Below are positions 2,059-23,323 of a stretch of 54,813 nt of DNA, piece by piece. Position numbers and translations under genes: made by a program. The DNA is taken from positions 1 through 54,813 of IMG/VR virus record IMGVR_UViG_3300002057_000001; one strand, written 5' to 3'. This DNA comes from a virus. Numbering within the stretch: the stretch's first letter is position 1; the number at the start of each line of letters is the position of its first letter. Below the pieces are notes generated by a model, which saw only the letters and a program-made list of their open reading frames with translations, ran no database searches and was not told the DNA's origin.

Positions 2059-2231
2059 CAAGCCTCAGAGGTGCTGAGGAAGTGATTCGCGGCCTGTTGT
2101 GAGGGCATATCGACCGCAAGTAATGAGGGGTTTTCCTGCAAAAATCATAACTGATCTTTCAGCCGTTTACGGTCCATTTATCATGTTCATTCATTCCTGA
2201 TGATGCTCAGACAATGAAAAAGGAATGACCT

Positions 2232-2381
2232 ATGATCCGCAACATCTTCTGCCTTGTGGCCGGTGCCATTATCGCAGCAGCAACCCTGATCATCACTCAC
2301 CCGGCTCACGCCCAGCACATTCACCTGCACAGCTATCTGAACGGTCATCAGTGGTCGTGTTGGTGCGGTTTCCTTTGGTGA
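2232..2381 (+). CDS. candidate small secreted peptide (49 aa), opposite strand to its neighbours
   Basis: AGGAA lies 7 nt upstream of the ATG. Translation is MIRNIFCLVAGAIIAAATLIITHPAHA/QHIHLHSYLNGHQWSCWCGFLW, which has a signal-peptide-like N-terminus with an AHA-Q site. Third-position GC is about 67 percent. A strong plus-strand terminator lies downstream. The ORF is too short for the ORF track. Confidence 0.35.
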   Translation: MIRNIFCLVAGAIIAAATLIITHPAHAQHIHLHSYLNGHQWSCWCGFLW

Positions 2382-2515
2382 TCTGCTTGACGGCAGCCAC
2401 CGGCAGCGCGTAGCCTGAGCGGGCTTTAAAAACCTATACGGTTCCGGCCTGATGCCGGTTGAACGCTTCACAGGAGGTTGCTGTGCAACAGATCAGGGGA
2501 AAGCCCTGATGAGGA

Positions 2516-2547
2516 AAGGCCGCCCTTGAGGGGCGGCCTTTTTCTTT
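2516..2547 (+). terminator. rho-independent terminator (plus strand)
   Basis: Stem GGCCGCCC (2518..2525) pairs with GGGCGGCC (2531..2538) around a 5-nt loop, followed by TTTTTCTTT. Confidence 0.7.
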
Positions 2548-2564
2548 GTCAGGATTGCTGCTGC

Positions 2565-2768
2565 TCAGCGCGTTTCAAAAACATCATGCCATTTCCGATC
2601 TGAAATGACTGTGATGATTTCCGCCAGATCAAGGCCGCCCCTCACTGCAAGCTGCTCAAGAGTTTGACCGTGATTTGTGATGGCCTGCGCCCGGTGCGGT
2701 TCAAGCAAATCCCAGGGAACGCTTTTGATGATCTTATCCCCAAGGACGGGGAATCGCTTTTCTGTCAT
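2565..2768 (-). CDS. hypothetical protein (last gene of the leftward early block)
   Basis: 67-aa ORF with a 4-nt overlap to the upstream gene. Confidence 0.55.
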   Translation of the reverse strand: MTEKRFPVLGDKIIKSVPWDLLEPHRAQAITNHGQTLEQLAVRGGLDLAEIITVISDRKWHDVFETR

Positions 2769-3034
2769 CCCTTCACTGCCTTCTGCTTATGATCACGCTT
2801 CACGGCCTCAATCAAGTTGGCTTGCGCCTGGGCAAACTCAGAGCCGGGGGCATGAATACCGACAAGAACGCCCTCAGGGCCGTCCTCTTGACCGTCAAGA
2901 TAATGCTGCCCCTGACGGCATGGGAAATACAGCCCCTTGTCATCTCGCTGAACCGTGACTGCACCAGCAGCAGCACAGTCAAAACCGCCGTCAAGAATGA
3001 TGCTGTCACCGGCTTTGATTTCATCAAGTTTCAT
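2765..3034 (-). CDS. hypothetical protein
   Basis: Start refined to ATG 3034 (MKLDEIKAG...) with AAGGAAAAGAC upstream. The longer track ORF 2765..3169 has a non-coding-looking N-terminus. Confidence 0.55.
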   Translation of the reverse strand: MKLDEIKAGDSIILDGGFDCAAAGAVTVQRDDKGLYFPCRQGQHYLDGQEDGPEGVLVGIHAPGSEFAQAQANLIEAVKRDHKQKAVKG

Positions 3035-3165
3035 GTCTTTTCCTTTTGTTGAGGTGATGCCCCGCCCCCTCGTCTTAACAGCAGACGTTACCAGTAGGGG
3101 CGGGGTCAGATCAGTGAGCATGTTCAGAGCCGAGCCGTAGCACCCGGATGGGGGAAACTCACCAA

Positions 3166-3348
3166 TCATTCAGGCGGTGTTGCCGCCCCTTCCCTTTCTA
3201 AGAGGGAAGCTATTTGACCGATCAGGCGTTTCTCAAGGCTGCCTGCAATCGCGGCCTTTCCCTGCTCAGTCAGGTATTCAGGATGAGCGTTTATTGTGTC
3301 ACGGACAGAACCGCGAATAACTCTGCTCAGCTTGCCGTGATCAGGCAT
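3166..3348 (-). CDS. hypothetical protein
   Basis: 60-aa ORF packed in the operon. Confidence 0.45.
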   Translation of the reverse strand: MPDHGKLSRVIRGSVRDTINAHPEYLTEQGKAAIAGSLEKRLIGQIASLLEREGAATPPE

Positions 3349-3568
3349 CTTTCTTGACCGTCAGATAATGCTCAGCACAGGCGGCCTCAGCCTCAGCTAT
3401 TGAGGCGCAACTTTTAGACCAAAGCCGATTCACATCATCAGAGAATTTAACGCTGCATCCCTCGCCAGACTGATAGGGCACAAGATGATACCAGCCCTCA
3501 GGAACAACGCAACGGGCTGTGCCGCCCCAAAAATCCTCAAAAGTAAGATTGTCTTTTTCAGCGGTCAT
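3341..3568 (-). CDS. hypothetical protein
   Basis: Start refined to MTAEKDN (ATG 3568), which overlaps the upstream stop as AATGACCGCTGA. Confidence 0.5.
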   Translation of the reverse strand: MTAEKDNLTFEDFWGGTARCVVPEGWYHLVPYQSGEGCSVKFSDDVNRLWSKSCASIAEAEAACAEHYLTVKKDA

Positions 3569-3914
3569 TGCTGTTCTCTTTCGGCCATATTGTTTCACCA
3601 CCATAACCGGGATGATCATGGTTGTTGCTGATGTGATTTTCAGGCGGCCTATTCCGCCAGCGGCGCTCATCCTTTCGGGCTATTGCCCTTCGTTCCTCAG
3701 GCGTTGCGATAGAGCAAACATAGGCATGACGGCCAGCAGCGGTAAAAATGAAACCGAAACAGCTTGCCCCGTTTTTTGGCGTTGACCGCCAAACACGACC
3801 ACAATGAGGGCAGGCAACTGAATTGCGCTCAAACCGCCTGACATGCCCGTCAGCGCTGGGATTTTTCACTGAGCGGGCACTTGCTTCCTCAATCAAAGCA
3901 GAATCCTTTTTCAT
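3558..3914 (-). CDS. hypothetical protein with a CPHC motif
   Basis: Start refined to MKKDSAL (ATG 3914), with AGGAG 8 nt upstream. Confidence 0.5.
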   Translation of the reverse strand: MKKDSALIEEASARSVKNPSADGHVRRFERNSVACPHCGRVWRSTPKNGASCFGFIFTAAGRHAYVCSIATPEERRAIARKDERRWRNRPPENHISNNHDHPGYGGETIWPKENSNDR

Positions 3915-3919
3915 CTTTC

Positions 3920-4222
3920 TCACTCCTGAAATTTTGATAGCGCCTGATCTTTGATCAGTCTCCATTTTGCAATATATGAGCGGTCACTGTTGGGGTTAAA
4001 TCCGTCACGTTTAAGCTGCCGTCTCAGCGCTGCATATTCATCCCTGAGCGCCTTATCAGCGCCTCTGTAGTGCTTGCCACATAGCCACTCATAGATGACA
4101 CGGCCTGCCGTCTGTGCCTCAGCCTCAGCAGGCTCAAGCCGACAGGTGCGGCGGCAGAACGGGGCAAGGCACCTGATGCGCTTGCCCTGATCTATCTCAG
4201 CCTGTTTTTCAGCCGCGTTCAT
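3920..4222 (-). CDS. hypothetical Cys-containing protein
   Basis: 100-aa ORF in the operon. Confidence 0.55.
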   Translation of the reverse strand: MNAAEKQAEIDQGKRIRCLAPFCRRTCRLEPAEAEAQTAGRVIYEWLCGKHYRGADKALRDEYAALRRQLKRDGFNPNSDRSYIAKWRLIKDQALSKFQE

Positions 4223-4529
4223 CTGGCAACATCGGGATGCTCAAATCTACATTTTCACCAAGCTGAAAAAGCAACATTGCAACAAACTCATCAACATTGC
4301 TCTCATCAACATTAGAAAAAGAAATGCTTTCTATTTCAGGAAACTGCTCTTTAATAAAAGGCCGCAACTTGCGCGCGACATCAGGCAAAGAATGTGTCCA
4401 GACTAAACGGCCCGCCATTTCTCCCATGGCGCTTTGCATTGATGACATCCCATGTTCTTTTAAAAGAACGCCGCTATAGATAGCGGCCACATCAAGAACG
4501 CAAAAAGTCTTTACTTCTTTTGAAGTCAT
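4209..4529 (-). CDS. hypothetical protein (visibly lower-GC gene)
   Basis: Start refined to MTSKEVK, with GGAG 9 nt upstream. The stretch 4209..4560 is AT-rich. Confidence 0.55.
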   Translation of the reverse strand: MTSKEVKTFCVLDVAAIYSGVLLKEHGMSSMQSAMGEMAGRLVWTHSLPDVARKLRPFIKEQFPEIESISFSNVDESNVDEFVAMLLFQLGENVDLSIPMLPDERG

Positions 4530-4583
4530 TTTGTAGCTCTCCATTTCTTTTTAAGAAATCTGCATCTTTTCAAGCCGCGTTCA

Positions 4584-4922
4584 TCACAACCCCTGAAAGC
4601 ACCGGCCATCATGGCGGCACCTGCGTTTCATTGCGGTACGCTGCTCATATCCGCTGAACAACTGGCTGAACGCCCATGCTGCATCCCGGCCACGGGGCAC
4701 CCAGAAATCAATCACGGTTTCACCGCGCAACCCCATGATAAGATGATACTCTGTTGGCGGGTCATCAGCGCAATCAGCAGCCCTGTCACTACCCGACATC
4801 CGGCGCATCGTCAGCGGGCCGTGTGCTGTGAACCGGGGCGTTTGCATTGTGACGGTTTCCCCGTCACGCGGCCCACCGATCACAAGGCCGGTGAATGTTT
4901 GCTGATCCTCTGCATAGGTCAT
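4584..4922 (-). CDS. hypothetical protein
   Basis: 112-aa ORF. Confidence 0.55.
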   Translation of the reverse strand: MTYAEDQQTFTGLVIGGPRDGETVTMQTPRFTAHGPLTMRRMSGSDRAADCADDPPTEYHLIMGLRGETVIDFWVPRGRDAAWAFSQLFSGYEQRTAMKRRCRHDGRCFQGL

Positions 4923-5299
4923 CAGAAAGCCCCCTCAAGGCAATCCGCACAGGGCGGGTTTATATCACGGCAATCTGATGTCATTTCATGCAGACGCCAG
5001 CACGGCGGATCACCTGATTGAGCGCAAAACCCGGAACAGATTTCTTCAAGTTCATCCGTCCATCCCAGCGCCTTTGCACGCTCCGCAAGTTCTTGCCGGA
5101 TGAAAGCCCCTGCCGTTCCGGTTCCTTCAAACTCGGCAAGCCGGTGACTTGATGCGGCGCTGATCCATGCTTTCAGGAATTGGCCGGGGGTGCCGTCAAT
5201 GACGTTGAGCAGGGGCGGTGACTTGCACTCTGCACAGGGCACCCTGTTTGTCATGCGCTCACCTATCAGGCCGCTACCGTTGCAGGCTTCACAGGTCAT
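4922..5299 (-). CDS. hypothetical protein with DnaJ-type CxxCxGxG / CxxC zinc-finger-like motifs
   Basis: The N-terminus reads MTCEACNGSG...CAECK. Confidence 0.55.
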   Translation of the reverse strand: MTCEACNGSGLIGERMTNRVPCAECKSPPLLNVIDGTPGQFLKAWISAASSHRLAEFEGTGTAGAFIRQELAERAKALGWTDELEEICSGFCAQSGDPPCWRLHEMTSDCRDINPPCADCLEGAF

Positions 5300-5661
5300 C
5301 AGGCTTTCCCCTCTATAGCTGCCTCAAGGCGCTGGGCCAGGGCATACAGGCGCTCAGGCTCAGGAAGCACGACGCGCGCCCGGTCATCACGCATCTGATC
5401 TTGCAGGGCCGCAATCTCACGCAGCATGTGCAGAGCGGCGGCCCCTTCCTGTTTCAGCGCGGCCATCTGATGCCGATAGTATTTCTCGGCGCTGTCATAG
5501 ACATCACTGTCAACGTAGCGGTGAAACTCTCTATCCCGGTCAAGATCACCGGCATAGCGGGCTATAGTCGCGCCCTCAGATAGAACAGCGTTGACAACGC
5601 CCTGATCATGTTCCTCACGCTCAGCCATCCATATTTCGCGGGGCCATTCTATGTCAGGCAT
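5299..5661 (-). CDS. hypothetical protein
   Basis: Start refined to MPDIEWP (ATG 5661), which overlaps the upstream stop as ATGCCTGA. Confidence 0.55.
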   Translation of the reverse strand: MPDIEWPREIWMAEREEHDQGVVNAVLSEGATIARYAGDLDRDREFHRYVDSDVYDSAEKYYRHQMAALKQEGAAALHMLREIAALQDQMRDDRARVVLPEPERLYALAQRLEAAIEGKA

Positions 5662-6112
5662 TTTTCTCTTTCCCTTTCTGAAACTCACGGGCCTCAAACT
5701 CAGCAATGATAATCATCTCATTCTGCCAATCCTCACTGAAACCCAACTGCTCAGCCAGCATCCGCAAGGATTCCTCACGCTCACCATCAGGAAGGGCACC
5801 GGCACACATTGCGGCGAAAGTCGCCATGCGTGAGGCATCAGCGTTCTGTTTATGCTGAGCGGATTTCTTGCGCTCATCAATCATTTCACGCTTGTAGTCA
5901 CGAGCGATGATCAACATGCACAGATAAAGTAAGTACAGCAGAAAAAGAGAAATCCCATCCCAGCTAAAAACTATAGCTGCAAGGAAAATGAAAGACAGAA
6001 TTGAATGAGAATAGTCAGCAATCTTTACCGTCAAAGATGCTGACATGAACCGGCTAATTGAGCCATTGACGCGGCCAATTAGCATCAGGAGTTTTTTGAT
6101 AATAGCGCTCAT
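5654..6112 (-). CDS. membrane protein (two hydrophobic segments, soluble acidic C-terminal domain)
   Basis: Start refined to MSAIIKK, with an ATGA overlap to the ASCH stop. The hydrophobic stretch is SILSFIFLAAIVFSWDGISLFLLYLLYLCMLII. The core is AT-rich. Confidence 0.6.
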   Translation of the reverse strand: MSAIIKKLLMLIGRVNGSISRFMSASLTVKIADYSHSILSFIFLAAIVFSWDGISLFLLYLLYLCMLIIARDYKREMIDERKKSAQHKQNADASRMATFAAMCAGALPDGEREESLRMLAEQLGFSEDWQNEMIIIAEFEAREFQKGKEKNA

Positions 6113-6510
6113 CTGATAATCCTCTCTTTCCATTTGAACAGGCCAAGCATCCCCTTGACCGGGATGAACGGCACGGGCTGCACATTCTCAAGCACAAGGC
6201 CGAACGGGCCGAAAAACCAAGGATCGTCAGAGGTGCTTATGCAATCCACAATCTCAGCGGTGCCGATGATGCCGCCTCGGATGTTTGATGCTGACAGCAT
6301 GGCTGGGGGCCATGACGGCGGGGATTGATCCATGATGAAAGCCTCTGCCTCAGAGTAGGCATCCCCGTTCATGTAGGATGAGGCGTGAAGGCAGATCAGG
6401 CCGCGATAGTTGAAGCGCCTCGGCCTGTTCTCAATGCGCTTGCCTGCCCTGAGGATTGCCCAGGCCCAAGGCTGACGGATGCTCAGGGCGCGGTCAGGCA
6501 GATCATTCAT
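6109..6510 (-). CDS. ASCH (PUA-like) domain protein
   Basis: The LSIRQPWAWAILRAGKRIENR signature is typical of ASCH domains. Confidence 0.65.
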   Translation of the reverse strand: MNDLPDRALSIRQPWAWAILRAGKRIENRPRRFNYRGLICLHASSYMNGDAYSEAEAFIMDQSPPSWPPAMLSASNIRGGIIGTAEIVDCISTSDDPWFFGPFGLVLENVQPVPFIPVKGMLGLFKWKERIIR

Positions 6511-6709
6511 GTGACAATCCTTTCTTGAGCGCTTCATGCTTTTCCCAATCAGGGAAAAAGACGCTCATTTGAACAGGGCAATAAGCAGTATATTCCCAGC
6601 GCTGTTTTGTTTGCCGCCAAAAACGGCAGATGACCTGATCATCAACTATGCCTCTGACGTGATAGACCTTGCGGCCATACCGCAGCTTGATCTTGTGCAG
6701 TTCAGACAT
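6503..6709 (-). CDS. hypothetical protein
   Basis: 68-aa ORF with AGGAGG upstream. Confidence 0.55.
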   Translation of the reverse strand: MSELHKIKLRYGRKVYHVRGIVDDQVICRFWRQTKQRWEYTAYCPVQMSVFFPDWEKHEALKKGLSHE

Positions 6710-6760
6710 CCCCTCACCTCCTGACGGGCACAGGGCACCCCCTGAGGGGTGCCCCTTGCC

Positions 6761-7639
6761 TCAGCCCGCGCTCATAGGCTTGCCACGGGCAGCAGCGGCA
6801 TCTGCATCAGCCATTTCACGCTGAAAGGCGTCTGCGTTGTTCAGCCAGACGTGAGAATCAGAGGATTCATAATTCGGCTGAATTTTGCCGCCGACATGAA
6901 GGGAAAGAGCGTGATTGCTCACCCCTTCCTCATAGGCAACCCGCACAAGCCGCCTGAGCCGCTGTATCTCAGCTTTCAGTTTTTCCGCGCTTTCATGTGA
7001 GCGCTTGTTATCAGCAACACGGGCCGCAATAGCGGCGCTGACATCTGCCTCAAGATCACCGATCCGCTGAGAGGACAGGCAGGCCGTGTTCATGTAGCCC
7101 TCACCGATTTCCTGCACCTCAGTCAGTTCAGCTTGCAGGGTGTTGACGTGAGCCTGTGCATCCGCAAGGGCTGCCCTGAGCGCTTTCTTGCCCTTGGGCT
7201 TGGGCACCGGCCAGTTGCCCCGCGCGCTGCTGTATTCGGCACCAACAAAATTGAAAGGATCATTTTCAACTGCTTGTGAAACATAGGCTTCACCTAAGCC
7301 GCTTTTGATTTCCTGAATTTTCTCGGCAACAGCCTTGCCCAGATCAAACGTCTTGCCGATCTGCTGAGGGCGGATCAGCACAATCCGCTTGTTTGCATAC
7401 GGGAACGCATCAGAGGCGTGTGTGATTCCTGAATAAACATCAGCCTCAGAGCGCACTGACAGCACCTCAACGCCGCCTGCCTCAAGGCCGGAACGGTCAT
7501 CATCAAAATAGACGTGCCTGACGGCTTCCTCAACGGCCCCACGCTGCCGCTCAAGGGACCATTCAGCCGGGGCTGTATAGGTGACGCTCAGCGTTGCTGT
7601 AACGGCTTCCATCATGGGTTTTTCTTGATCTGTTGACAT
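6761..7639 (-). CDS. hypothetical protein with a central coiled coil
   Basis: 292-aa ORF. A GC hairpin at 6733..6756 follows its stop. Confidence 0.65.
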   Translation of the reverse strand: MSTDQEKPMMEAVTATLSVTYTAPAEWSLERQRGAVEEAVRHVYFDDDRSGLEAGGVEVLSVRSEADVYSGITHASDAFPYANKRIVLIRPQQIGKTFDLGKAVAEKIQEIKSGLGEAYVSQAVENDPFNFVGAEYSSARGNWPVPKPKGKKALRAALADAQAHVNTLQAELTEVQEIGEGYMNTACLSSQRIGDLEADVSAAIAARVADNKRSHESAEKLKAEIQRLRRLVRVAYEEGVSNHALSLHVGGKIQPNYESSDSHVWLNNADAFQREMADADAAAARGKPMSAG

Positions 7640-7698
7640 CTTGCTTTTTCCTTCGTGATAACCCGGCGATCTGCCGGGGATGATATAATCAGGGGTTT

Positions 7699-8205
7699 TT
7701 ATGCTCTGTGTTTTGCCGTCCTTTCACCAACCATCAGCGCAAGATGCGTGATCCGGTCATCAGGAAGGGACAGGGCCGCCCGGTGCGGCCCGTCCCTGAA
7801 CCGTTCCCAGCCCGCCTGATCATCGACATCAAGAACGCCGCCTGTAACCAGTTCATCTTGATCTAGGTTGAGCATGATGCTGAGTATCTGCCTGAGGGCG
7901 CGGCCCTCACGTTTTTCACAGCCATCTTTCATCAAAGCAGCGTGTTGCTGCTGCCTCAGTTCAACTGAGGCTGAGGGTGAGGGTGATGCAAACACCTCAT
8001 CTTTCAGCAACGGGCACCAATCTGGGGGCGGGCCATCCGTCAAGCTGGCTGTCACGCGCCCGTTTCGATGCCCGCTCAATGTATGCGGCAGATCACGGCT
8101 GCTATCCTTGCTGCAATAAGGAACATAGGCAGGGTTTCCAAAGCCCCCGCGATGATCCTTGAAAGGGCAACCCTCACACTTTGAAATAACTATTTTCCGG
8201 TTCAT
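7699..8205 (-). CDS. hypothetical protein with a Cys-rich N-terminal domain
   Basis: MNRKIVISKCEGCPF...YC...WCPL. An alternative start exists at 8220. Confidence 0.55.
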   Translation of the reverse strand: MNRKIVISKCEGCPFKDHRGGFGNPAYVPYCSKDSSRDLPHTLSGHRNGRVTASLTDGPPPDWCPLLKDEVFASPSPSASVELRQQQHAALMKDGCEKREGRALRQILSIMLNLDQDELVTGGVLDVDDQAGWERFRDGPHRAALSLPDDRITHLALMVGERTAKHRA

Positions 8206-8207
8206 TC

Positions 8208-8807
8208 TCACAATCCCCATCGTTCAGCGCATACAGGACCAACCCCGCGCGCAATGCTTTTTGAACACGTCAGTTCCCGGCCACAGCAAGCACATTCCCC
8301 GGTTCGACGGCCATGTGCTACGGCAGTATTCAGCGGATCAGCGGCAAGGCGTTTCAGCATGGGGCGCGGATCAGTGATGATGCCCTCACGCGCTGGGGTG
8401 AACCGGCCTGAATCAACCTTGCCGCAATACCGTTCCCGTTCATAGATATAGACGGCATCAGGGTTTCTGCTGCGCTGCCCTGGGGGTTTCAGAACAAACC
8501 CATCTATCTTGAGCCGGGGCCGCTTGATCCCAGATGCGCGGGCCACGTCAAACAAATCATGCAGGGGGTCAAGATCACCAACGGCATCAGCGGCCTCACG
8601 GGCCTCTGTCTTGGCAATCAGGGCTTTCACAGCGGTCATCTGCTTTTCACTGATCCTGCCGTATTTCCTGATCTGACCACCAACAGACTTTGCAAAATCA
8701 TTCCATGCAGCCAGCTTGACAAGGGCAGGGATGATGCCGGGATGCTGAGCATCAAACCGGGCAAGATTGCCAGACAGCTTGAGGGGCTTTTCAGCGGTCA
8801 TCATCAT
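8208..8807 (-). CDS. hypothetical protein with a DUF6011-like C-terminal CxxCGR...GxGPxC motif
   Basis: The C-terminus reads GECACCGRELTCSKSIARGVGPVCAERWG. Confidence 0.55.
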   Translation of the reverse strand: MMMTAEKPLKLSGNLARFDAQHPGIIPALVKLAAWNDFAKSVGGQIRKYGRISEKQMTAVKALIAKTEAREAADAVGDLDPLHDLFDVARASGIKRPRLKIDGFVLKPPGQRSRNPDAVYIYERERYCGKVDSGRFTPAREGIITDPRPMLKRLAADPLNTAVAHGRRTGECACCGRELTCSKSIARGVGPVCAERWGL

Positions 8808-9049
8808 GCCCCCTCACCTGTCTTGGGGTGAGGGGTTGCGTCACCGGGGAAAGCGTCAATCCATGACAGCCCGCTGAGAACCTGCAAGTTTGCTTTGATA
8901 GGATCAGTGCCATCAGAAAGGCTGCGCTTTGCCTCAGCAAGAGCCTCATTGTCACTCATCGCACCGATAGCGATAGGTGAGGCACCTTTGCCGGGGAAAT
9001 AGCGGTATGTGTGATAAGGCGCAGCAGCGCGGGGTTCAATCTTTGTCAT
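8804..9049 (-). CDS. hypothetical protein; start codon embedded in the CCGGACATGACATG box
   Basis: 81-aa ORF with no Shine-Dalgarno sequence. Its ATG is the last triplet of the conserved box. Confidence 0.6.
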   Translation of the reverse strand: MTKIEPRAAAPYHTYRYFPGKGASPIAIGAMSDNEALAEAKRSLSDGTDPIKANLQVLSGLSWIDAFPGDATPHPKTGEGA

Positions 9050-9112
9050 GTCATGTCCGGTCAGGTATTTAGTTTGTGAAACCGTCCTAAATCGGCTTCA
9101 CATCATTTGCAA
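9042..9112 (-). promoter_or_regulatory. conserved promoter-like module: TTGCAA-N17-TAGGACGGTTT-N16-TACCTGAC-CGGACATGACATG
   Basis: TTGCAA is at 9107..9112, TAGGACGGTTT at 9079..9089, TACCTGAC at 9060..9067 and the box at 9047..9060. A second copy of the architecture is at 12260..12334. The 19-mer at 9042..9060 is identical to 19086..19104. Confidence 0.45.
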
Positions 9113-9129
9113 CAGATAATTTACAGCAG

Positions 9130-9867
9130 TTATGTTTGATTCTGATCAGTCACAAGATCAAAGGCCGCCTGCCATCCCTCATCAGCCAGTATCTCAGCGT
9201 ATGTTTCGGGATGCTTTGCCTTGAGGTCAGGCATGTACTCAGAGGCGATCCAGCGGCCTCTGACATCACCTTTAGAGAGGTAGCCCGCTGAGGTTGCCCA
9301 TGCTGAGGGTGACAGGATGAGTGCCTTGAAATCAGCGCGGGTGACGTATCCCCGTTTCTCAAGAATGATCATCAGTTTCATCGAGCGGATAGCCCAGGAT
9401 GACAAGACTTTCGGGGATGATGCCCCGGCCTCAACGCGCGGGATATACTCAGGCAGGATCAGGCGGGATGTCGGGCACTCATCAACCCATTCATCACTGA
9501 AATACCAGCTACGGCAATTCCAAGTGCTTAGCTTTGGCAGGTTGTCATGGCAGTAAGATGCGGCCTGCCTCAGCACGGTAACGCCGAGGTGACGGCATAG
9601 GCTTTTCAGCTTGTGATTCACATCAGAGGGCACAAGTACCGCCCTGAAATCCGGCCCGGTATCAGAGCGTGAGCGCCTGTCTCTGACGGCCTGCTCAATC
9701 ACCTCTGCATTGAGGCGCAGCTTTGCCTCAACGCCTATCTGATAGCCCTGAGGACCAATAAGCAAGATGTCATAATTCTGAGTTTCAGGGTATGCCGTCC
9801 ATTCCTCAGGCAGCCAGTCAATGAATGAGCGGCACAAGGCGGTTTCAGCCTTGAATATCTTGCTCAT
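9130..9867 (-). CDS. hypothetical protein; possible PD-(D/E)XK nuclease fold plus a C-terminal winged-helix-like region
   Basis: The pattern E8...YDILLIG...IGVEAKL resembles a D...ExK nuclease core. KLMIILEKRGYVTRADF resembles a wHTH. This was read by eye only. Confidence 0.35.
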   Translation of the reverse strand: MSKIFKAETALCRSFIDWLPEEWTAYPETQNYDILLIGPQGYQIGVEAKLRLNAEVIEQAVRDRRSRSDTGPDFRAVLVPSDVNHKLKSLCRHLGVTVLRQAASYCHDNLPKLSTWNCRSWYFSDEWVDECPTSRLILPEYIPRVEAGASSPKVLSSWAIRSMKLMIILEKRGYVTRADFKALILSPSAWATSAGYLSKGDVRGRWIASEYMPDLKAKHPETYAEILADEGWQAAFDLVTDQNQT

Positions 9868-10112
9868 TGCTGATCTGCCTCAGCAGGATAATCAAGCTGA
9901 CGAACAGAGATTCCTGACTTTGTTTTTTTGACATGAAAACACTGCCCGACGCGCTTCACGATTGCATCCTTGTGAGGCATTTCATTCATTCCGTACTGCG
10001 CCGCCTGCACAGCGGCATCAAGCCGCTCAGGGGTGCATTGCAGCCGGATCACCGGGGCATCTGCAACAGGCTCCATGACAGTATCATTTTTCATCTGATT
10101 TTCCTCCATCAA
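9864..10112 (-). CDS. hypothetical protein
   Basis: 82-aa ORF; the start is ambiguous, with several Met codons. Confidence 0.45.
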   Translation of the reverse strand: MMEENQMKNDTVMEPVADAPVIRLQCTPERLDAAVQAAQYGMNEMPHKDAIVKRVGQCFHVKKTKSGISVRQLDYPAEADQQ

Positions 10113-10404
10113 GCTGATAAGACGGATGCCCTATGTTGCGCCCGCTGCGCTCACGCAGCTTGCGCCCAAGTCCCCGCATAGTGATAGGAACGGCACCGGC
10201 CTTTATGGCCTGTGCCCGCTTGCCCTTGGCGATGTCAAAATGCTCATGCGGGGTGCCCGCTTTCTGAATCCATTTCCGGGCAACGCCTATCTGATCCGCC
10301 ATTTCAAGCAGTTCATCTGTGCTGTCAGCGATCATGTGTGACATTTTCATTCGACGGAAACGGCCCATCGGGCTGTCACACATATCATCAACAAAAACTG
10401 TCAT
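10084..10404 (-). CDS. DUF4031-like protein
   Basis: The MTVFVDD...MSHMIADSTDELLEMADQIG...HFDI...AIKAGA pattern matches my recollection of DUF4031. Confidence 0.55.
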   Translation of the reverse strand: MTVFVDDMCDSPMGRFRRMKMSHMIADSTDELLEMADQIGVARKWIQKAGTPHEHFDIAKGKRAQAIKAGAVPITMRGLGRKLRERSGRNIGHPSYQLDGGKSDEK

Positions 10405-10493
10405 CTGCTAATCACCTTTTTCAATTATTCAACGCTGGCTTTCAGCGCGCGTTCCCATCCGAAATCCCACAATTCCCAATCACTTTCATCATC

Positions 10494-10826
10494 TTACCAT
10501 TCCGGGGGCTTTTCAAAGGGATTGCCGGAACGGGCAGTTCCGCGATCAAAGGCAATGCGGCCCATCTGAGAGGGGCCGCGAGCGCTCTTGCTTGCGCCTG
10601 TCTGCCACCTCTGAAAGAGCCGCCTTGCCCTCAGCCAGCGCTCAGCACCCTCCTGAGAGGCGTTGAAGGCTTTCCGGCTGTCAACACCCGCAACCTCACG
10701 CAGCGCCTCTGCTGCCTCATCCTTGCCGCATACGTCACGGCCCGTGCAATCACTCAGGAAGTGCTGAAAGACAGGATCACCGCACTTGATGGCGGCCTCA
10801 GCCGCATAGTTGGGCGCATCAGCCAT
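10494..10826 (-). CDS. hypothetical protein
   Basis: Start refined to MADAPNY, which overlaps the upstream stop. Confidence 0.5.
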   Translation of the reverse strand: MADAPNYAAEAAIKCGDPVFQHFLSDCTGRDVCGKDEAAEALREVAGVDSRKAFNASQEGAERWLRARRLFQRWQTGASKSARGPSQMGRIAFDRGTARSGNPFEKPPEW

Positions 10827-11331
10827 GCTCACACTCAAGCAGGTGCAGGCGGTCCCGTGCCGCGTTGAAGCCCTCAGGCTTGGGCAGGCGGGCATCTAGG
10901 CCGCTCATCAGGAACCGGCGCAGCATGATACGCTCACGCCGCTGAGCGGCTGCCCTGCGAGCAAGGCGCTTGCGTGTCAGCGCGACGTTCTGACGTATCT
11001 CTGTTTTCGCGTTGCGGAAAGAACGCCGTCCGAAAAGGTAGTGAACAACAGAGACACCGGCCCGCGTCCTGACTTCCTCAATCGGCTGACCAATCTGACC
11101 CATAGGCCAGCGCCAGAGACGGCAACGCCGCCCCCAGAGCATCACACGGATAAGCGCCGGGGCTGCTGCCCTCAGCGCTATCTTGAAATCATCGGTGCTA
11201 TCATGCAGGGCGGCCTGCTGCCCTCTCAGGCTTGCCGTGAACGCCTCAATAGTTTTCACCGGATCATTCCCGGCAACAGACAGCGCGAAAGCGTCTAAGG
11301 CGTGATCAAAAATTCTGGTATGTTTCATCAT
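10819..11331 (-). CDS. hypothetical protein
   Basis: 170-aa ORF. Confidence 0.55.
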   Translation of the reverse strand: MMKHTRIFDHALDAFALSVAGNDPVKTIEAFTASLRGQQAALHDSTDDFKIALRAAAPALIRVMLWGRRCRLWRWPMGQIGQPIEEVRTRAGVSVVHYLFGRRSFRNAKTEIRQNVALTRKRLARRAAAQRRERIMLRRFLMSGLDARLPKPEGFNAARDRLHLLECEHG

Positions 11332-11391
11332 CTGTCATCATCCCTGATGATGGGGTTGACGCGGGGTGACAGGCACCCCGCGCTGATCTGC

Positions 11392-11610
11392 TTAGGCATC
11401 TGCTGCCTTGTCCCTGAGTTCAGCGCCGGTCACTTCAACGCTGAATTCACGGGAAACGCCGTCATCCATGCCGTGAACGTCATAGACACGGCCCGTGATG
11501 ACAACATCAAGCGGTTCCCCGCCGTTGTCAAAATGCCGTTTCAGGGCATCACGCCCTTTCTTGACATCAAGCAAAGCAAAGCCGCTGCTGATCTGAGGGG
11601 GCTTGCTCAT
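11392..11610 (-). CDS. hypothetical protein
   Basis: 72-aa ORF. Confidence 0.5.
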   Translation of the reverse strand: MSKPPQISSGFALLDVKKGRDALKRHFDNGGEPLDVVITGRVYDVHGMDDGVSREFSVEVTGAELRDKAADA

Positions 11611-11936
11611 CAGCGGCGACGGCGCAGAGGCTCTGCCGGGGGCAGGCCGCCCTCAGCACGTCCGGGCTTGTTCAGCAACCGGGCAAACTGCCGCCGCAAC
11701 TGCCGGGAAGCACCCTCACCCGGATCAGCCATCATCATATCAGGACGGCTGAGGCTTTTGTCAGAGCGGTAAACTTTCCGCTTTCCTTTATTGTGCCGGT
11801 TGCGCGCGGCCCGCTTGCTGCCCTCATCCTGATACAGTTTCTCAGGCTCAGCAGAGCGTAACTGCTGGCCCATAAGGCCAAACCCCAGCATTGCTGTTGC
11901 GCTGCTGATCAAGCGCCCTAATCCGGTTCTCATCAT
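11610..11936 (-). CDS. hypothetical protein (N-terminal hydrophobic segment, basic C-terminus)
   Basis: Start refined to ATG 11936, with AGAGAGGA 8 nt upstream. The track start is a TTG codon. Confidence 0.5.
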   Translation of the reverse strand: MMRTGLGRLISSATAMLGFGLMGQQLRSAEPEKLYQDEGSKRAARNRHNKGKRKVYRSDKSLSRPDMMMADPGEGASRQLRRQFARLLNKPGRAEGGLPPAEPLRRRR

Positions 11937-12034
11937 GTCAGTGATCCTCTCTTGATAGAGCAAAGGCGCTCAGGAAGGGGGCGGGCATCAGGCCCGCCCC
12001 TAACCGGAAAGCCTCACGGCCCCTCAAAGGTGCG

Positions 12035-12259
12035 TCAAGCTGCAACCTTGTCAGCGCTGATGACGGGGCACATCGAATAGCTGCCCCAAGGCTTGACGGT
12101 TTCATTACCGTGAACCGGGCAGGGCTTCACGCGGAAACGCTTGCCCTCAGATGTTGTGATTGTTTTTGCAGTGCGCTTTTGAACCGTGATGCTGATGATG
12201 CAGTCATAATCACAAAGGCTGCGTGTCTGATACGTCTTGCCGGTTTCAAAAGTTTTCAT
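12035..12259 (-). CDS. hypothetical protein
   Basis: 74-aa ORF. TACCTGAC lies immediately upstream of the ATG. Confidence 0.55.
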   Translation of the reverse strand: MKTFETGKTYQTRSLCDYDCIISITVQKRTAKTITTSEGKRFRVKPCPVHGNETVKPWGSYSMCPVISADKVAA

Positions 12260-12334
12260 GTCAGGTATTTCCTTGATGTCATGTCAGGTATGTTTTGGCA
12301 AAACCGTCCTAGCTTTATGCCAGAACGGTTGCAA
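12260..12334 (-). promoter_or_regulatory. second copy of the promoter-like module TTGCAA-N17-TAGGACGGTTT-N15-TACCTGAC (TACCTGAC duplicated)
   Basis: TTGCAA is at 12329..12334, TAGGACGGTTT at 12301..12311, and TACCTGAC at 12283..12290 and 12260..12267. A degenerate box CCTGACATGACAT is at 12276..12288. Confidence 0.45.
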
Positions 12335-12354
12335 GAGTTTTTTTGCATGTGCCG

Positions 12355-12672
12355 TCAGGCTTTTTGAAACTGGCCCGTTTTCAAGCATCTGATTTTTGAC
12401 TGAGCGTTGTGCAAGCGATTGTGATCAGCCCTTGACATAACCTCTAAATTTTCAATTCGGTTGTCAGTTTTATCATCATTTTTATGATGAATGATCATGC
12501 CTGTCTTGGGTCTAAGGTTCCCTGCACTCACCCAAACCACAAGATGCTCATAGGCGTAACCATTAGGATCAGACAAAGGGTGAGATTTTTCAAGCCTTAG
12601 TTTGACATAGCCGGTAGACGCGACTGAGCCTCCCGGCTTCCACCTATGCTGACGTGATGCTCTTGCTGCCAT
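12355..12672 (-). CDS. HNH endonuclease (free-standing, homing-type)
   Basis: IIHHKNDDKTDNRIENLEVMSRADHNRLH is a classic HNH motif. The gene is lower in GC than its flanks. Confidence 0.8.
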   Translation of the reverse strand: MAARASRQHRWKPGGSVASTGYVKLRLEKSHPLSDPNGYAYEHLVVWVSAGNLRPKTGMIIHHKNDDKTDNRIENLEVMSRADHNRLHNAQSKIRCLKTGQFQKA

Positions 12673-12682
12673 TTTTGATTCC

Positions 12683-13345
12683 TTATTGAAAAAGAGATAG
12701 CTGCCCGCTGCCTTGCTGACCGTCCGGCACCCAGCCAGAACGGGCAGCGTCTCCCCATTGCTGCGCTATGGCGGCAGCTATGCCCGGAAAGGTCCGACTG
12801 CGCTCTTTCCACCGATCAGGGCCAGGGGGCATCCGGTGAACGCGCTGCTCACGGCCTGACACGATTTCCGTAGGCTCAAGCGGCGGCAGGTTTTTTAGCC
12901 AAAAACAGGTGCGTTTTGTTTCACCGTGCCCGAATTGCCAGGGCTGAACAGAGCAGGCGAAATCCTCATAATTTGTGATCAGCGCTTTCGCGTGACGGTG
13001 CATCACCGGGTTTTCTATCGCAATCCGGGGAATGTCAGCGTTCCAGAGGTCAGAGAACAGCGCTGCACCGTCCCTGAGGTCATCCCACATCTGATCAAGT
13101 GTCTTGCCCTTGGGCGGCACCTTGAGCCAGCGCACACCGCTGTTGCAGAGCCGGGTGCAGGGCGGGTGAGCAACCATCATCAAATCCCAGCCCCAGCCCA
13201 GCACATCACGGACATCACCCGTGATGTGATGATTGCTCATATCCTCAGCGGGCAGCAGATCACATGACCACGCATCATGCCCCTGAGCCGCGAACGCGCG
13301 CCGGACAACCCCAGAGAATTCACAGGCGATGAGGATACGGGCCAC
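12683..13345 (-). CDS. short DNA (cytosine-5) methyltransferase-like protein
   Basis: The motif I-like ACEFSG, motif IV HPPC and motif VI IENP occur in the canonical order. Confidence 0.55.
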   Translation of the reverse strand: MARILIACEFSGVVRRAFAAQGHDAWSCDLLPAEDMSNHHITGDVRDVLGWGWDLMMVAHPPCTRLCNSGVRWLKVPPKGKTLDQMWDDLRDGAALFSDLWNADIPRIAIENPVMHRHAKALITNYEDFACSVQPWQFGHGETKRTCFWLKNLPPLEPTEIVSGREQRVHRMPPGPDRWKERSRTFPGIAAAIAQQWGDAARSGWVPDGQQGSGQLSLFQ

Positions 13346-13349
13346 GGCC

Positions 13350-13814
13350 TCAGCTTACCTTGCCGGGTTCAGTAGGCTTGACGGTGTAGACAACGGCACC
13401 ACCGTCAGACGGATCATCATGCTTGTGAATCGACATGCCTTTCAGGCCGTCATTGATCATATCACGGGGCACCCGAATCTCACCACCTGCCGCCATGATC
13501 AGCGCGGCCATGCTCAGAGCGAGGTTGTCACCAAGAGCGGTGTTGCCAACGGTTAAACCGCGATAGCCGTTTGCCATCAGAGCAACAGCATCTTTCAAAG
13601 GAACATCAGCAAGAATGAAAAACCCGACAGCACCGTCAATCGTCGGAATCTCTGCATAGATGTATGACATCCGCTCAATACGGCTATCAATGTTCATGTG
13701 ATCCTGCACGATGAGCGGGGCATCAGGCATCAGAGCGACATCAAAGCCCCCAACGGGTGCCTGAGCAAGCTGACCGGCCAGCGGCCCGCCAATGCACATT
13801 CCTGAAAAATTCAT
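13350..13814 (-). CDS. hypothetical protein
   Basis: Start refined to MNFSGMC, with GAAGGAA 7 nt upstream and an ATGA overlap to the upstream stop. Confidence 0.55.
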   Translation of the reverse strand: MNFSGMCIGGPLAGQLAQAPVGGFDVALMPDAPLIVQDHMNIDSRIERMSYIYAEIPTIDGAVGFFILADVPLKDAVALMANGYRGLTVGNTALGDNLALSMAALIMAAGGEIRVPRDMINDGLKGMSIHKHDDPSDGGAVVYTVKPTEPGKVS

Positions 13815-13966
13815 TGTGGTGTTCCTTCTCTCCATGAAAAACAGGCGTTTTCACCCCCGGCAAGCAGGCTCTTGATGAGCCGCGCAAGCGTCGGGGATTT
13901 CTTGGGCAGGCGTTGCGCTTCCGCGATCTTTGCCGCCAATATCTGAGGGTCAATTTTTGCCATCAT
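13811..13966 (-). CDS. hypothetical small protein
   Basis: Start refined to MMAKIDPQ. TACCTGAC (13977..13984) lies 10 nt upstream. Confidence 0.4.
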   Translation of the reverse strand: MMAKIDPQILAAKIAEAQRLPKKSPTLARLIKSLLAGGENACFSWREGTPQ

Positions 13967-14009
13967 CAGGCTTTCTGTCAGGTAGATAGGTAAGGGGCTG
14001 AGGCCCGCG

Positions 14010-14204
14010 CTATTGCGCGGCCTCATCCTCAAGATAGAACATCTTGATTCCGTCAACATCAACAGATGAGACGCTGCCGCGCGCTTCCAGCTTTTCAAGA
14101 TCAGACGGGGCTGCCTTGAGTTCAGCCGGGGTCATCGGAACGGTGCCGACACGGCCAAGCGTGACTTTCTGAATCAGCGTCATTTTTCCGGGGTTCTTCG
14201 CCAT
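14010..14204 (-). CDS. hypothetical small protein
   Basis: Start refined to MAKNPGK. Confidence 0.45.
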   Translation of the reverse strand: MAKNPGKMTLIQKVTLGRVGTVPMTPAELKAAPSDLEKLEARGSVSSVDVDGIKMFYLEDEAAQ

Positions 14205-14208
14205 CTGT

Positions 14209-14478
14209 TCAGCCCTCCAACCAGCCGAGATTTTTATCATTGCTGTAAAAATACCGGCGCTGAGGGGTGAACGCCTCATACTTATACCGGCTCACCCCGC
14301 CCTCTGTGTCAGGATCAGTATGCCTGACAAGGATCATGCCGAGAAAGTCAACGGCCTGGGCATCATCACTGAGATACTTTCCGAAAAAGATATTCTCAAG
14401 CCGGGTCAGGCGGCGGGCAAACCCCTCAGCAATAGCCTCATCAATGTCCGGGGTGAAAACTGCGTGTGGTGCGCTCAT
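14209..14478 (-). CDS. hypothetical protein; proposed start inside an aCGGACATGACATG box
   Basis: The track ORF 14209..14553 starts at a TTG codon. The in-frame ATG at 14478 is the last triplet of a 13/14 copy of the box (14476..14489), as in two other genes. Confidence 0.45.
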   Translation of the reverse strand: MSAPHAVFTPDIDEAIAEGFARRLTRLENIFFGKYLSDDAQAVDFLGMILVRHTDPDTEGGVSRYKYEAFTPQRRYFYSNDKNLGWLEG

Positions 14479-14524
14479 GTCATGTCCGTTCTGTTTCCTG
14501 TAGTCCCTGAGATAAATGTCATCC

Positions 14525-14553
14525 ATTGCAGCAATGCAATAGATAATTTGCAA
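14525..14553 (-). promoter_or_regulatory. sigma70-like promoter candidate TTGCAA-N17-TGCAAT, overlapping the dyad ATTGCAttgcTGCAAT
   Basis: TTGCAA is at 14548..14553 and TGCAAT (minus sense) at 14525..14530, with a 17-nt spacer. Confidence 0.35.
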
Positions 14554-14561
14554 AGAAACTA

Positions 14562-15131
14562 TCAGCCCGCGCTTTTCAGGGCACGATAACGCGACGTGAC
14601 GGCCTCAACCGGCACATCCTCACGGGTCGCAATCAGCGCAAGTTTCCCGGTGATGCCCTTTGTCAGCAAGATTTCAGTATCAAGAGAACCTGACCACGTT
14701 GATTGAGGCAGCAGCATGTGAGCGGGAACCGTGACAATCTCACCCATGATCTGCCGCATCTGCTCAGTGAACATGGCAAAATCAGCGCGAATCGCTCTGA
14801 TGTCAGCGCCGGTATCACGCAGCAGTTCAACCGTCTCAGGGTCATCCTCAGGCGCATCACGGGCAAGCCAGCGCATCTGATAGCCGTAGCCCGGTTTCGC
14901 CTCAATGTGCCAGCCGGTGCCCTGTATGCAGCGTTTCGTTGCGTGTCCCAGGCGCAGCACCCTCACCCGGTCAAAAGGCTCAGCCTCATCAAAGATTGCC
15001 TCAAAAAGATCAGGATATTTCACGATCTTTTCTTTTGCCTTGTAAAGTTCGTGAACAAACTGCTCTTGAGCAGGGCTTAACTTGCGCTCACGTATCGCGC
15101 TGGGCAGTCTCAGCCCTCTATTCATCGTCAT
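14562..15131 (-). CDS. hypothetical protein
   Basis: 189-aa ORF. Confidence 0.6.
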   Translation of the reverse strand: MTMNRGLRLPSAIRERKLSPAQEQFVHELYKAKEKIVKYPDLFEAIFDEAEPFDRVRVLRLGHATKRCIQGTGWHIEAKPGYGYQMRWLARDAPEDDPETVELLRDTGADIRAIRADFAMFTEQMRQIMGEIVTVPAHMLLPQSTWSGSLDTEILLTKGITGKLALIATREDVPVEAVTSRYRALKSAG

Positions 15132-15342
15132 CTAACAAATCCTTTGCCCAAGAAACCGCGCGTAACGTCTGTTTGTAGAAAGCATCATCAGGCCGTTTGT
15201 TTAGCATACGTTTATAAAAGATTTCCCAGCGCTTCAATTCTTCAAAATTGTAAACACCTTTCCAACTTTTACCGGCAATAGTTGCAATGCCTGCCGCAAG
15301 ATCAACATCAGCAGAGAAACGGCCAAATGAGCGATAAGGCAT
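15118..15342 (-). CDS. hypothetical protein (AT-rich gene)
   Basis: 74-aa ORF. Confidence 0.5.
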   Translation of the reverse strand: MPYRSFGRFSADVDLAAGIATIAGKSWKGVYNFEELKRWEIFYKRMLNKRPDDAFYKQTLRAVSWAKDLLDDDE

Positions 15343-15597
15343 TTAACTTCTCAGGACCATAGGCAGGCGCTTTTCTGACGGATCACGGATAAACTCAGAA
15401 CCGGCACAAGAGCGCGTCACCATCGGCCCTGATCTGTGATTCTCAACAAAGCACAGCCCGTGATATTCAAGGCGCTTGGCAATGCCGAGAGCCGCCGTAT
15501 CCAGCCCGATACACTGATGCAGCAGATCACCTGTCAAGTTGATTGCGAGCATATCACGTAAGGCGGTTTCTGCCGTATGGCGTTGATACTGTCCCAT
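15343..15597 (-). CDS. hypothetical protein
   Basis: 84-aa ORF that overlaps the 3' end of the MT-A70 ORF. Confidence 0.45.
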   Translation of the reverse strand: MGQYQRHTAETALRDMLAINLTGDLLHQCIGLDTAALGIAKRLEYHGLCFVENHRSGPMVTRSCAGSEFIRDPSEKRLPMVLRS

Positions 15598-16166
15598 GTC
15601 AGTTCCTCAAATTCATCATATTGATTGCCGAAGGCGTCCCAACCGGGCCGCCTCTGACGGGTGAACATATCAAGGCGGTGTTCCGCCTCAGGGGCAAGGC
15701 GCTCAGCGGCCTCATACGCTTCCTCAGGCTTCCTGCTGTTCTCTCTGACCTTGCCGAGAACAACAGAGCGCACACTTGCTGAAAACTTGGGCTTGCCTAT
15801 TTTGCCGATCAGGTACGGCTCACCGGCACCTCTTAGGCAGTATCCGGTGCCGAAATGCTGCTTTCCGTTTTTCGTGAATTTTGCCCAATGCCCTGAGGTG
15901 ACAAATTCAAAACCCCATCCCTTGAGCGTCTGCATCTGGACATCAAGCATAGGATTCGTTGCCCAGAGCCAGAGGATGCAATCATCAGCCGCCATCAAAG
16001 AAACCGGCATCGCCTGAATTTCCTCAAGCGTCATGCAGTCATATTGGCTGACCGGGTTTTTCCCCTCACCCTTTTCAGAGCGGTTCTGAAACAGCCAAGC
16101 CGGGTCACACATGATCAGGCCGTAGCGCCGCCAAGGGATGTCCCTATAATCACGATAAGCGTTCAT
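15534..16166 (-). CDS. MT-A70 family DNA N6-adenine methyltransferase
   Basis: IMCDPAW is a DPPW-type catalytic motif. The remaining pattern, WLWATNP...GWGF...W.K...G.G...R...E..L, is typical of MT-A70. Confidence 0.8.
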   Translation of the reverse strand: MNAYRDYRDIPWRRYGLIMCDPAWLFQNRSEKGEGKNPVSQYDCMTLEEIQAMPVSLMAADDCILWLWATNPMLDVQMQTLKGWGFEFVTSGHWAKFTKNGKQHFGTGYCLRGAGEPYLIGKIGKPKFSASVRSVVLGKVRENSRKPEEAYEAAERLAPEAEHRLDMFTRQRRPGWDAFGNQYDEFEELTWDSINAIRQKPPYVICSQST

Positions 16167-19073: not shown

Positions 19074-19085
19074 TCTGATCCTCGA

Positions 19086-19104: not shown

Positions 19105-19105
19105 G

Positions 19106-19330: not shown

Positions 19331-19379
19331 CATTTCCTTCAACCCCGCCCGCTTGCGCCGGGGCGGTTCAGCGTTACCC

Positions 19380-23318: not shown

Positions 23319-23323
23319 AAACC

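Follow-up and report, generated by a model that had tools for sequence, protein, structure and literature searches.

Why does one 14-nt word stand at the starts of several early genes of a phage, each time facing the gene? The word, CCGGACATGACATG (the box), lies in IMG/VR virus record IMGVR_UViG_3300002057_000001, which was analysed over its whole length of 54,813 nt (the window). An earlier reading of the sequence (the original prediction) saw in the box either a phage-specific promoter with its initial transcribed region, giving leaderless or very short-leader mRNAs, or an operator for a phage regulator. As described below, the box is repeated, keeps one orientation, is linked to start codons, is conserved in related phages and varies in spelling from lineage to lineage. 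The explanation that we favour, tentatively, is that the box is a portable translation-start or 5′ untranslated region (5′-UTR) module, which a co-evolving phage factor would recognise in its sense orientation, most likely in the mRNA.

Copies of the box at early gene starts

A word search of the window yielded three exact copies of the box, one copy matching at 13 of the 14 positions and two matching at 12. These six matches compare with 0.50 expected, and none of 100 shuffled sequences reached six. The consensus is TACC(G/T)GACATGACATG. One of the 12/14 matches (2037..2050, plus strand) belongs to an array before the late operon, which is treated below. The five others are all in gene sense, as the original prediction had it, lie 0-17 nt from a start codon and are confined to 9-21.5 kb, the early region. 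The genes downstream of them encode an exonuclease, a primase and three small open reading frames (ORFs) without assigned function. These genes are non-structural and belong to unrelated families, as do those that carry the start-associated sequences (SAS) to which the box is compared at the end.

In three of the five copies the last ATG of the box is itself the start codon. This is the case for copy 1 (exact, 9047..9060, minus strand) and ORF 8804..9049, for copy 3 (13/14, ACGGACATGACATG, 14476..14489, minus strand), which lies directly downstream of a winged-helix gene and provides ORF 14209..14478 with its proposed start, and for copy 5 (exact, 21489..21502, plus strand) and the RecE/YqaJ-like exonuclease gene 21500..22516. 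The exonuclease start is also backed by N-terminal conservation in the related phages L113 and L115, and the position of the box is kept in these two and in L114. Copy 4 (exact, 19091..19104, minus strand) lies within a gap of 32 nt that separates the stop of ORF 19106..19471 from the primase ATG (19073). Two upstream ORFs (uORFs), of 2 and 16 codons, begin in this copy; the longer one runs across the primase start, and the primase gene has a GAGGA site of its own. Copy 2 (12/14, CCTGACATGACATC, 12275..12288, minus strand) is followed by AAGGA and by a second partial copy, TACCTGACATG (12257..12267), which is a one-base variant of the box head TACCGGACATG and holds the start of ORF 12035..12259; read from the sequence, the first ATG of copy 2 opens an 8-codon uORF whose UGA overlaps this start. 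The exact and 13/14 copies, the three start codons and the 16-codon uORF were all recovered as originally described, and so was the identity of 9042..9060 and 19086..19104 over 19 nt (CCGGACATGACATGACAAA). The two degenerate copies that had been placed near 12276..12288 and 20236..20246 (both minus strand) are present at 12275..12288 and 20233..20246.

Of these two, the copy at 20233..20246 (ATGACATGACAGGC) stands 6 nt before the ATG (20226) of a small leader ORF. L113, L114 and L120 have small ORFs of 22-30 codons in the corresponding position, and in each of them a box-like word particular to that phage precedes the ORF. The leader ORF of the window (20226..20143, minus strand, 27 codons) lies upstream of the MILTVTTTM gene, and the GTG annotated as a start at 20197 is probably not the true one. 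Directly before copy 1 stands the 8-mer TACCTGAC (9060..9067). It is enriched in the window, with five copies against 0.37 expected, and is best regarded as belonging to the longer consensus TACC(G/T)GACATGACATG. The claim that it always precedes a start codon does not hold for the fifth copy, which is inside a gene (3269..3276, minus strand). The shorter word GACATGA occurs at at least nine start regions of the window, all of them in the early region. Another word, the 15-nt GGATCACTGACATGA, is common to the start regions 11925..11940 and 20776..20791 (minus strand) of ORFs 11610..11963 and 20350..20787, respectively; the true start of the former ORF is probably ATG 11936.

Closer relatives of the phage were reached via homologues of two window proteins. 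Conservation of the box in related phages, which the original prediction had set out as a point to look for, was found in L113, L114 and L115. At the exonuclease start the window has CCGGACATGACATG, L115 has CCGGACACGACATG, L114 has CCGGACCGAACATG and L113 has CCGGATATGATATG. The box is the best conserved non-coding block at this start in the four phages, whose proteins are 59-77% identical; both the flanks of the box and the leader between it and a promoter-like pair (see below) have diverged. The proteins of L113 are 58-78% identical to those of the window (77% for primase and exonuclease), and in this phage GATATGA replaces GACATGA at three separate intergenic start sites. Such a concerted change suggests a sequence-specific reader or homogenisation. 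In L115, CAGGACATGACATGACAGAC stands at the start of a non-homologous gene. Over six sequences, GGACA is located at most 18 nt upstream of the start codons of 16 genes, compared with ∼2.6 expected, an enrichment seen in all of these genomes.

The exact 14-mer was absent from the more distant relatives examined, and an exact-word scan of IMG/VR returned 66 contigs with one copy each, which is chance level, and the phage itself was not among them. The nearest isolate as judged by the primase (44%), Microcystis phage Mae-JY30 (PP438422.1; L121), has the gene order of the window and a gene-sense word of its own, TGATTGATTG, in 7 copies against 1.3 expected. Each of these is just 5′ of a Shine-Dalgarno site and one is upstream of the primase gene; the word analogous to the box is GATTGATTG. 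The box-like words of Mae-JY30 (1642..28508) and a CGTGACAT array before its late operon (∼24050..24150) are not annotated in the record.

Transcription and translation signals around the box

Every intergenic gap of the early region was listed. Four gaps contain a TTGCAA-type cassette, they are the only ones that do, and each of them ends in a box. The earlier view that the boxes head transcription units thus agrees with four of the five copies but not with the primase copy, which directly follows the stop codon of the upstream ORF and leaves no intergenic space for a promoter. Upstream of copy 1 the cassette reads TTGCAA-N17-TAGGACGGTTT (9079..9112, minus strand), and the same layout is present at 12301..12334 upstream of copy 2. 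Copy 3 is preceded by TTGCAA/TTGCAT and the palindrome ATTGCATTGCTGCAAT (14519..14553, minus strand), and copy 5 by an A-tract with CTTGC (-35-like) and AATTAT (-10-like) at 21409..21450 (plus strand), an arrangement common to L113. In addition, AAATTATCT is common to the cassettes of copy 3 and copy 1 (9114..9122 in the latter), and the 16-mer GCAAAAAAACTCTTGC of the copy 5 cassette recurs in that of copy 2 (12331..12346, minus strand).

TTGCAA lies at a variable distance of 40-63 nt from the box; the AUG or Shine-Dalgarno site, by contrast, is close to it or at a constant distance. The box is therefore placed relative to the translation start and not to the promoter-like hexamer. In the exonuclease unit the promoter-like pair (A-tract/CTTGC/AATTA) ends ∼40 nt upstream of the box; as this pair is common to L113, its position argues that the box is not a promoter core. 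A promoter scan gave no site at any box. The A/T-rich hexamers that the original prediction had taken for -10-like elements fall outside the TAnnnT rule. A sigma-54 reading of TTGCAA was discarded by eye, as the -24 position has no GG element. The divergent early control region has an extended -10 (TGGTATAAT) pointing right and then a G8/C8 hairpin (GGGGGGGGCTTAAAGCCCCCCC), at 21261..21269 and 21320..21341, respectively; the hairpin is kept in L113, L114 and L115.

The box can pair with the 3′ end of 16S rRNA through a split GGA..UGA, with the GGA 6 nt from the AUG. The predicted duplex of -5.3 kcal/mol is near the genome median of -5.8 kcal/mol, so that the proposed absence of a Shine-Dalgarno sequence holds only in part. 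What stands of that proposal is that the match is weak and split: a contiguous match to 16S rRNA of at least 4 nt is absent from the box. Copies 12275 and 19091 are each followed by an ordinary AGGA-type site. No shared RNA fold was found around the five copies, and the z-scores were unremarkable in four of them. Most of the five predicted structures leave the 3′ portion of the box unpaired.

The late-operon array and possible readers of the box

The first 8 bases of the box, CCGGACAT, occur ten times in the window compared with 1.6 expected. Five of these occurrences are at 1974..2044, and outside the array and the boxes the word is found only twice in 54.8 kb. The array (1974..2058, minus strand) is located in a 943-bp non-coding gap (1622..2564) before the late operon and comprises seven CCGGACAT-like units, two of which have one mismatch. 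Four CCGGACAT units starting at 1974, 1984, 2006 and 2016 and the unit CCCGACAA at 1994..2001 (all minus strand) form five direct repeats spaced 10, 10, 12 and 10 bp; these are followed by an inverted pair made up of CCGGACAT (2037..2044, plus strand) and CCCGACAT (2051..2058, minus strand). Identity between the box and an array unit extends to 11 nt (ACCGGACATGA). OmpR/PhoB-type proteins bind direct repeats that are one helical turn apart. The array has the arrangement typical of their sites, at least two direct repeats at 10-11-bp phasing, and the boxes do not; a weak second GACA is located exactly 10 bp after the first one in the 19-nt version of the box (copies 1 and 4).

A conserved late-operon element, TTGAAATGAGACAAAAT (1792..1808, minus strand; TTGACGAGTGAGACAAAAT in relatives), lies 170-250 bp from the array; a long leader and the first late gene, 1052..1621, come after it. 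Between the array and this element there is a conserved GTCAACCCCC block (1928..1937, minus strand). In relatives the array is at the same place, followed by GTCAACCCC, TGAGACAAAAT, a long leader and a homologue of 1052..1621. The array unit is CCGGACA(T/A) in the window, the Brucella-type prophages and L099, CGTGACA(T) in L084, L086, L116, L117 and Mae-JY30, and CGTTACAT in L119, and the orientation of the array is inverted in some relatives. This variation of the unit together with the flips in orientation argues that the array is a DNA site for a phage-encoded protein of changeable specificity. The long leader of the 943-bp region contains G+C-rich hairpins, and the layout recalls Q-type antitermination regions such as that of Bartonella BaGTA.

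A candidate for this protein is the 189-aa product of 14562..15131 (minus strand), for which an N-terminal OmpR/PhoB-type winged helix, a helical C-terminal half and no receiver domain are predicted. Its L115 orthologue matches Pfam Trans_reg_C with 28.8 bits (cut-off 26.2), and four more homologues carry the domain. The AlphaFold model has a pLDDT of 82, and all 50 of the PDB matches listed by Foldseek belong to the OmpR/PhoB/ToxR/SARP group, DNA complexes of PhoB, PhoP and ToxR among them; matches at the level of the domain had root mean square deviations of 1.5-5.3 Å over ∼70-90 columns, most of them ∼2-3 Å. The predicted recognition helix is RLGHATKRCIQ in the window (array unit CCGGACAT), RLVHETRRTIQ in L114 and L115 (array unit CGTGAC(AT)) and RLVFETRRIIQ in L120 (array unit CGTTACAT), a covariation that comprises four genomes and follows their phylogeny. 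From the domain, the model and this covariation we hold with moderate confidence that the protein is a candidate array binder, and it may also bind the boxes. The family is small and known only from metagenomic phage contigs. No homologue was found in L084, L086, L099 or the Brucella-type prophages, even with relaxed hidden Markov model and Pfam searches; L084 has the array and no winged-helix homologue on a 19-kb contig that spans the recombination operon to the first late gene.

An operator, the second of the two original proposals, is viable. Its strongest candidate regulator is 14562..15131, an ORF absent from the three named at that time. One of those three, 16375..16854 (159 aa, minus strand), has a C-terminal helix-turn-helix (HTH; SRATAYRxRDRAL). 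Since the HTH helix is invariant in 24 homologues and the spelling of the box is lineage-specific, this protein cannot explain the box spellings; it is a candidate reader of a conserved rather than a lineage-specific site. It was also rejected both as an antiterminator of the Q21 type and as a sigma factor, since its confident model (pLDDT 81) has no PDB match better than E = 2 (sigma-28). Three other candidates were dropped for the array. The ParB-like protein 199..792 has a PHROG ParB-like match but no Pfam match and no recognisable HTH, its match to the Spo0J N-domain is weak, and a search for related loci was empty. For the primase as specificity determinant (iteron model), 2 alignment columns follow the unit classes compared with 13 for the phylogenetic split. 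The divergent small gene beside the array is not a conserved binder, as it has no homology across relatives and ORF 2225..2413 looks non-coding. The ORFs scanned yielded neither a phage RNA polymerase nor a clear sigma factor.

According to the translation-start reading that we tentatively favour, an early cassette would be composed of a host-type promoter-like region (with TTGCAA or CTTGC as -35), a short unconserved leader and the box, in this order. The box itself would be an unstructured, A/C-rich ribosome landing site with two AUGs separated by 5 nt and a split Shine-Dalgarno sequence (GGA..UGA). The second of these AUGs would start the gene in three copies, and in the two others the AUGs of the box would open uORFs that end on or cross the real, AGGA-served start. 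A sequence-specific reader encoded by the phage would set or shut off translation of the early gene group, in the way put forward for the SAS of Cluster K mycobacteriophages and demonstrated for RegA of T4. We infer that the reader is phage-encoded because the spelling is uniform within a genome and differs between lineages (GACATGA, GATATGA, GATTGATTG). Several points weigh against this explanation. No RNA-binding candidate protein was identified, and the present data contain no direct discriminator between recognition of RNA and of DNA; asymmetric DNA operators, too, can be locked to the direction of transcription, as stoperators are (PMC9283540). A purely translational role does not explain that the box head (8-11 nt) is the unit of the late array. 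The 21489 copy has no mini-ORF stop, so that termination-reinitiation cannot be general. Finally, different hosts or gene conversion could yield lineage-specific spelling without a phage factor.

The boxes might instead be DNA operators of the stoperator type. The 14562..15131 protein would then activate the late operon via the array and block RNA polymerase at the boxes. There it would sit at most ∼35 nt downstream of the predicted starts of four early promoters and, in the fifth case, a little before the primase gene, and this one protein would flip expression from early to late. Such a model makes sense of the 8-11 nt of the box head (ACCGGACATGA) that recur as the otherwise rare array unit CCGGACAT, and of array repeats phased by 10 bp, as for OmpR/PhoB-type proteins, in a phage that encodes a winged helix of this type (Pfam on the L115 orthologue, Foldseek). 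It is also favoured by the joint change of array unit and recognition helix in four genomes, by the flips of the array, which imply that it is read as DNA, by the second GACA exactly 10 bp after the first in the 19-nt box, and by the orientation-locked asymmetric operators known from Cluster A mycobacteriophages (PMC9283540). Yet the early gene starts of L115/L117, L114/L116, L119/L120 and Mae-JY30 lack the array unit (CGTGACAT or CGTTACAT), from which their box-like words differ; in these phages the box family is therefore independent of the array reader. Since, moreover, L084 has an array without a winged-helix homologue on its contig, the boxes are single units and not 10-bp pairs, the tie to start codons plays no role in the model and the covariation is limited to four genomes whose phylogeny it tracks, we consider the operator model, the main rival, somewhat unlikely. 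A combined form, in which CCGGACAT is read as DNA at the late-operon array and the same word on the five early starts has a second reader, appears unlikely as well. If it were true, one phage protein, or a co-evolving factor acting at the RNA level, would couple late activation to the shut-off of early translation or transcription, and respelling between lineages (GACAT, GATAT, GATTG) would act like an immunity specificity. For L113 the P0050 helix suggests CGTGACAT as the array unit, which would mean separate readers for box and array.

It is also conceivable, if quite improbable, that the box has no dedicated reader and is a weak ribosome-binding site that was copied along with mobile promoter cassettes and kept alike by gene conversion of the RecE/RecT type. 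The pairwise sharing of cassette blocks (TAGGACGGTTT by copies 1 and 2, AAATTATCT by copies 1 and 3, the 16-mer by copies 2 and 5), the HNH endonuclease gene (12355..12672) that adjoins one cassette, the RecE-like exonuclease and partner genes of the phage and a pairing energy equal to that of the average gene would all fit. However, the box is kept at the exonuclease start between proteins of 59-77% identity and with diverged flanks, it stands at a non-homologous gene in L115, the same base has changed at three separate sites of L113, and 14-19 nt is very short for gene conversion. Highly unlikely, in our view, is the promoter of the original prediction, with the box as its core or initial transcribed region and mRNAs that are leaderless or nearly so. 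Four copies do end gaps of promoter size, the box is gene-oriented, hexamers richer in A/T are located 6-8 nt upstream, and the 9-22 nt that separate the Mae-JY30 word from the start codon would be plausible for a leader. Against this, no -35/-10 pair is found at a fixed distance from the box, TTGCAA being 40-63 nt away, the scan is empty and the hexamers lack TAnnnT; the pair common to L113 precedes the exonuclease box by ∼40 nt, the primase copy comes right after a stop codon, and the ORFs scanned include no phage RNA polymerase or clear sigma factor.

The phage genome and comparison with known systems

The window ends in an exact 49-bp direct repeat of its own start (1..49 = 54765..54813). 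The repeat is an overlap from circular assembly, and the window is therefore a complete genome of ∼54,764 bp (∼54.76 kb), with a G+C content of 55%. No tRNA genes were called in the window, no Rfam family reached its threshold anywhere in it, and megablast against GenBank phages gave no DNA-level match. Starting from the primase, related prophages were found in Brucella/Ochrobactrum, Rhizobium, Amorphus, Mesorhizobium and Aminobacter. As they are all prophages of such bacteria, the host is probably a member of the Hyphomicrobiales (Rhizobiales-type).

The primase-helicase gene is located at 16854..19073 (minus strand), and the plus-strand operon of the exonuclease gene also encodes a helicase and SSB. 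Besides the HNH endonuclease, identified gene products include an MT-A70 methylase, a Mom-like protein, a muramidase, the large terminase, the portal and the ParB-like protein already mentioned. This last protein, which is ParB/sulfiredoxin-like and ends in a C-terminal region with a CPGCGEHF motif, the MT-A70 methylase and the Mom-like protein (199..792, 15534..16166 and 54344..54802, respectively) suggest DNA modification functions. A gene of 1287 aa that contains a 114-nt tandem duplication with 73% identity (31935..32162) is probably the tape measure gene. The gap 23319..23462 has two tRNA T-arm-like motifs (GGTTCGATTCC, twice), and ARAGORN calls no tRNA there. The distant relatives L009, L010, L015, L017, L092 and L110 have tandem arrays with an 11-bp period (CGGACAAA / CCGGGACATTT), both directly behind the primase gene and a few kb further on, beside TTGTCAAG. 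CtrA-like response regulators are encoded by two further distant relatives, L013 (recognition helix KIVDVLICKLRQK) and L112 (recognition helix KVIDVFVCKLRKK).

Several known systems resemble parts of what is described here. The late operon of Bartonella BaGTA, likewise a Rhizobiales phage-type element, shows Q21-like antitermination and is preceded by a conserved element close to the promoter and by a long structured leader (bioRxiv 10.1101/2024.11.20.624540), and the late operon of the window has this arrangement too. The likeness concerns the late region and not the boxes, and a Q21-like fold was not found for 16375..16854. The array is like OmpR/PhoB-family sites (pho boxes, SARP heptad repeats, ToxR sites) in having direct repeats at 10-11 bp and in a phage that is predicted to encode such a protein; it differs from them in that this protein has no receiver domain and combines an N-terminal winged helix with a helical domain, and in the flips of orientation. 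The analysis also indicates where the regulatory region of the late operon (array, TGAGACAAAAT, long leader) is likely to lie in a widespread group of Rhizobiales prophages. At the level of translation, the RegA protein of T4 shuts off a group of early mRNAs through words overlapping the AUG; its sites are A/U-rich and loosely conserved. Boxes likewise overlap the AUG of early mRNAs, and no RegA homologue was identified in the window.

Stoperators of Cluster A mycobacteriophages (L5 gp71-type) are bound in lysogens by a monomeric immunity repressor with an HTH and a stoperator domain, one protein that acts at a promoter and at many other sites (PMC9283540). Boxes and stoperators are both asymmetric sites of 13-14 nt in short intergenic spaces with an orientation tied to the direction of transcription. 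The boxes differ in being located at start codons rather than gene ends and in that their putative binder has an OmpR/PhoB-type winged helix; a stoperator-type immunity repressor was not found in the window.

By its anatomy the box is best filed with the SAS of Cluster K mycobacteriophages. These are short asymmetric words of 13 nt in one orientation, present in many copies at or near start codons, whose function is unknown and for which a role in translation has been proposed (PMC3203893). The box, with 14-17 nt, is likewise asymmetric and in one orientation, marks unrelated non-structural genes and is conserved across related phages. Both combine part of a Shine-Dalgarno complementarity with conserved positions that are unable to pair with rRNA. 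The words are unrelated by inspection (GGGATAGGAGCCC compared with CCGGACATGACATG), so that the likeness is one of anatomy and not of descent. The host phylum also differs, strict copies are fewer here (5-6, plus at least nine GACATGA starts), and the Shine-Dalgarno core is weak and split. New with respect to SAS are the start codon within the word, the host group, and a head that doubles as the unit of the late-operon array. SAS have been known since 2011 and described mainly in actinobacteriophages; the box is a second, unrelated system, from alphaproteobacterial phages. With its 5-6 strict copies, natural single-base variants in close relatives and a candidate DNA-binding partner, it offers a small and tractable case for distinguishing action on translation from action on transcription by words of this kind.

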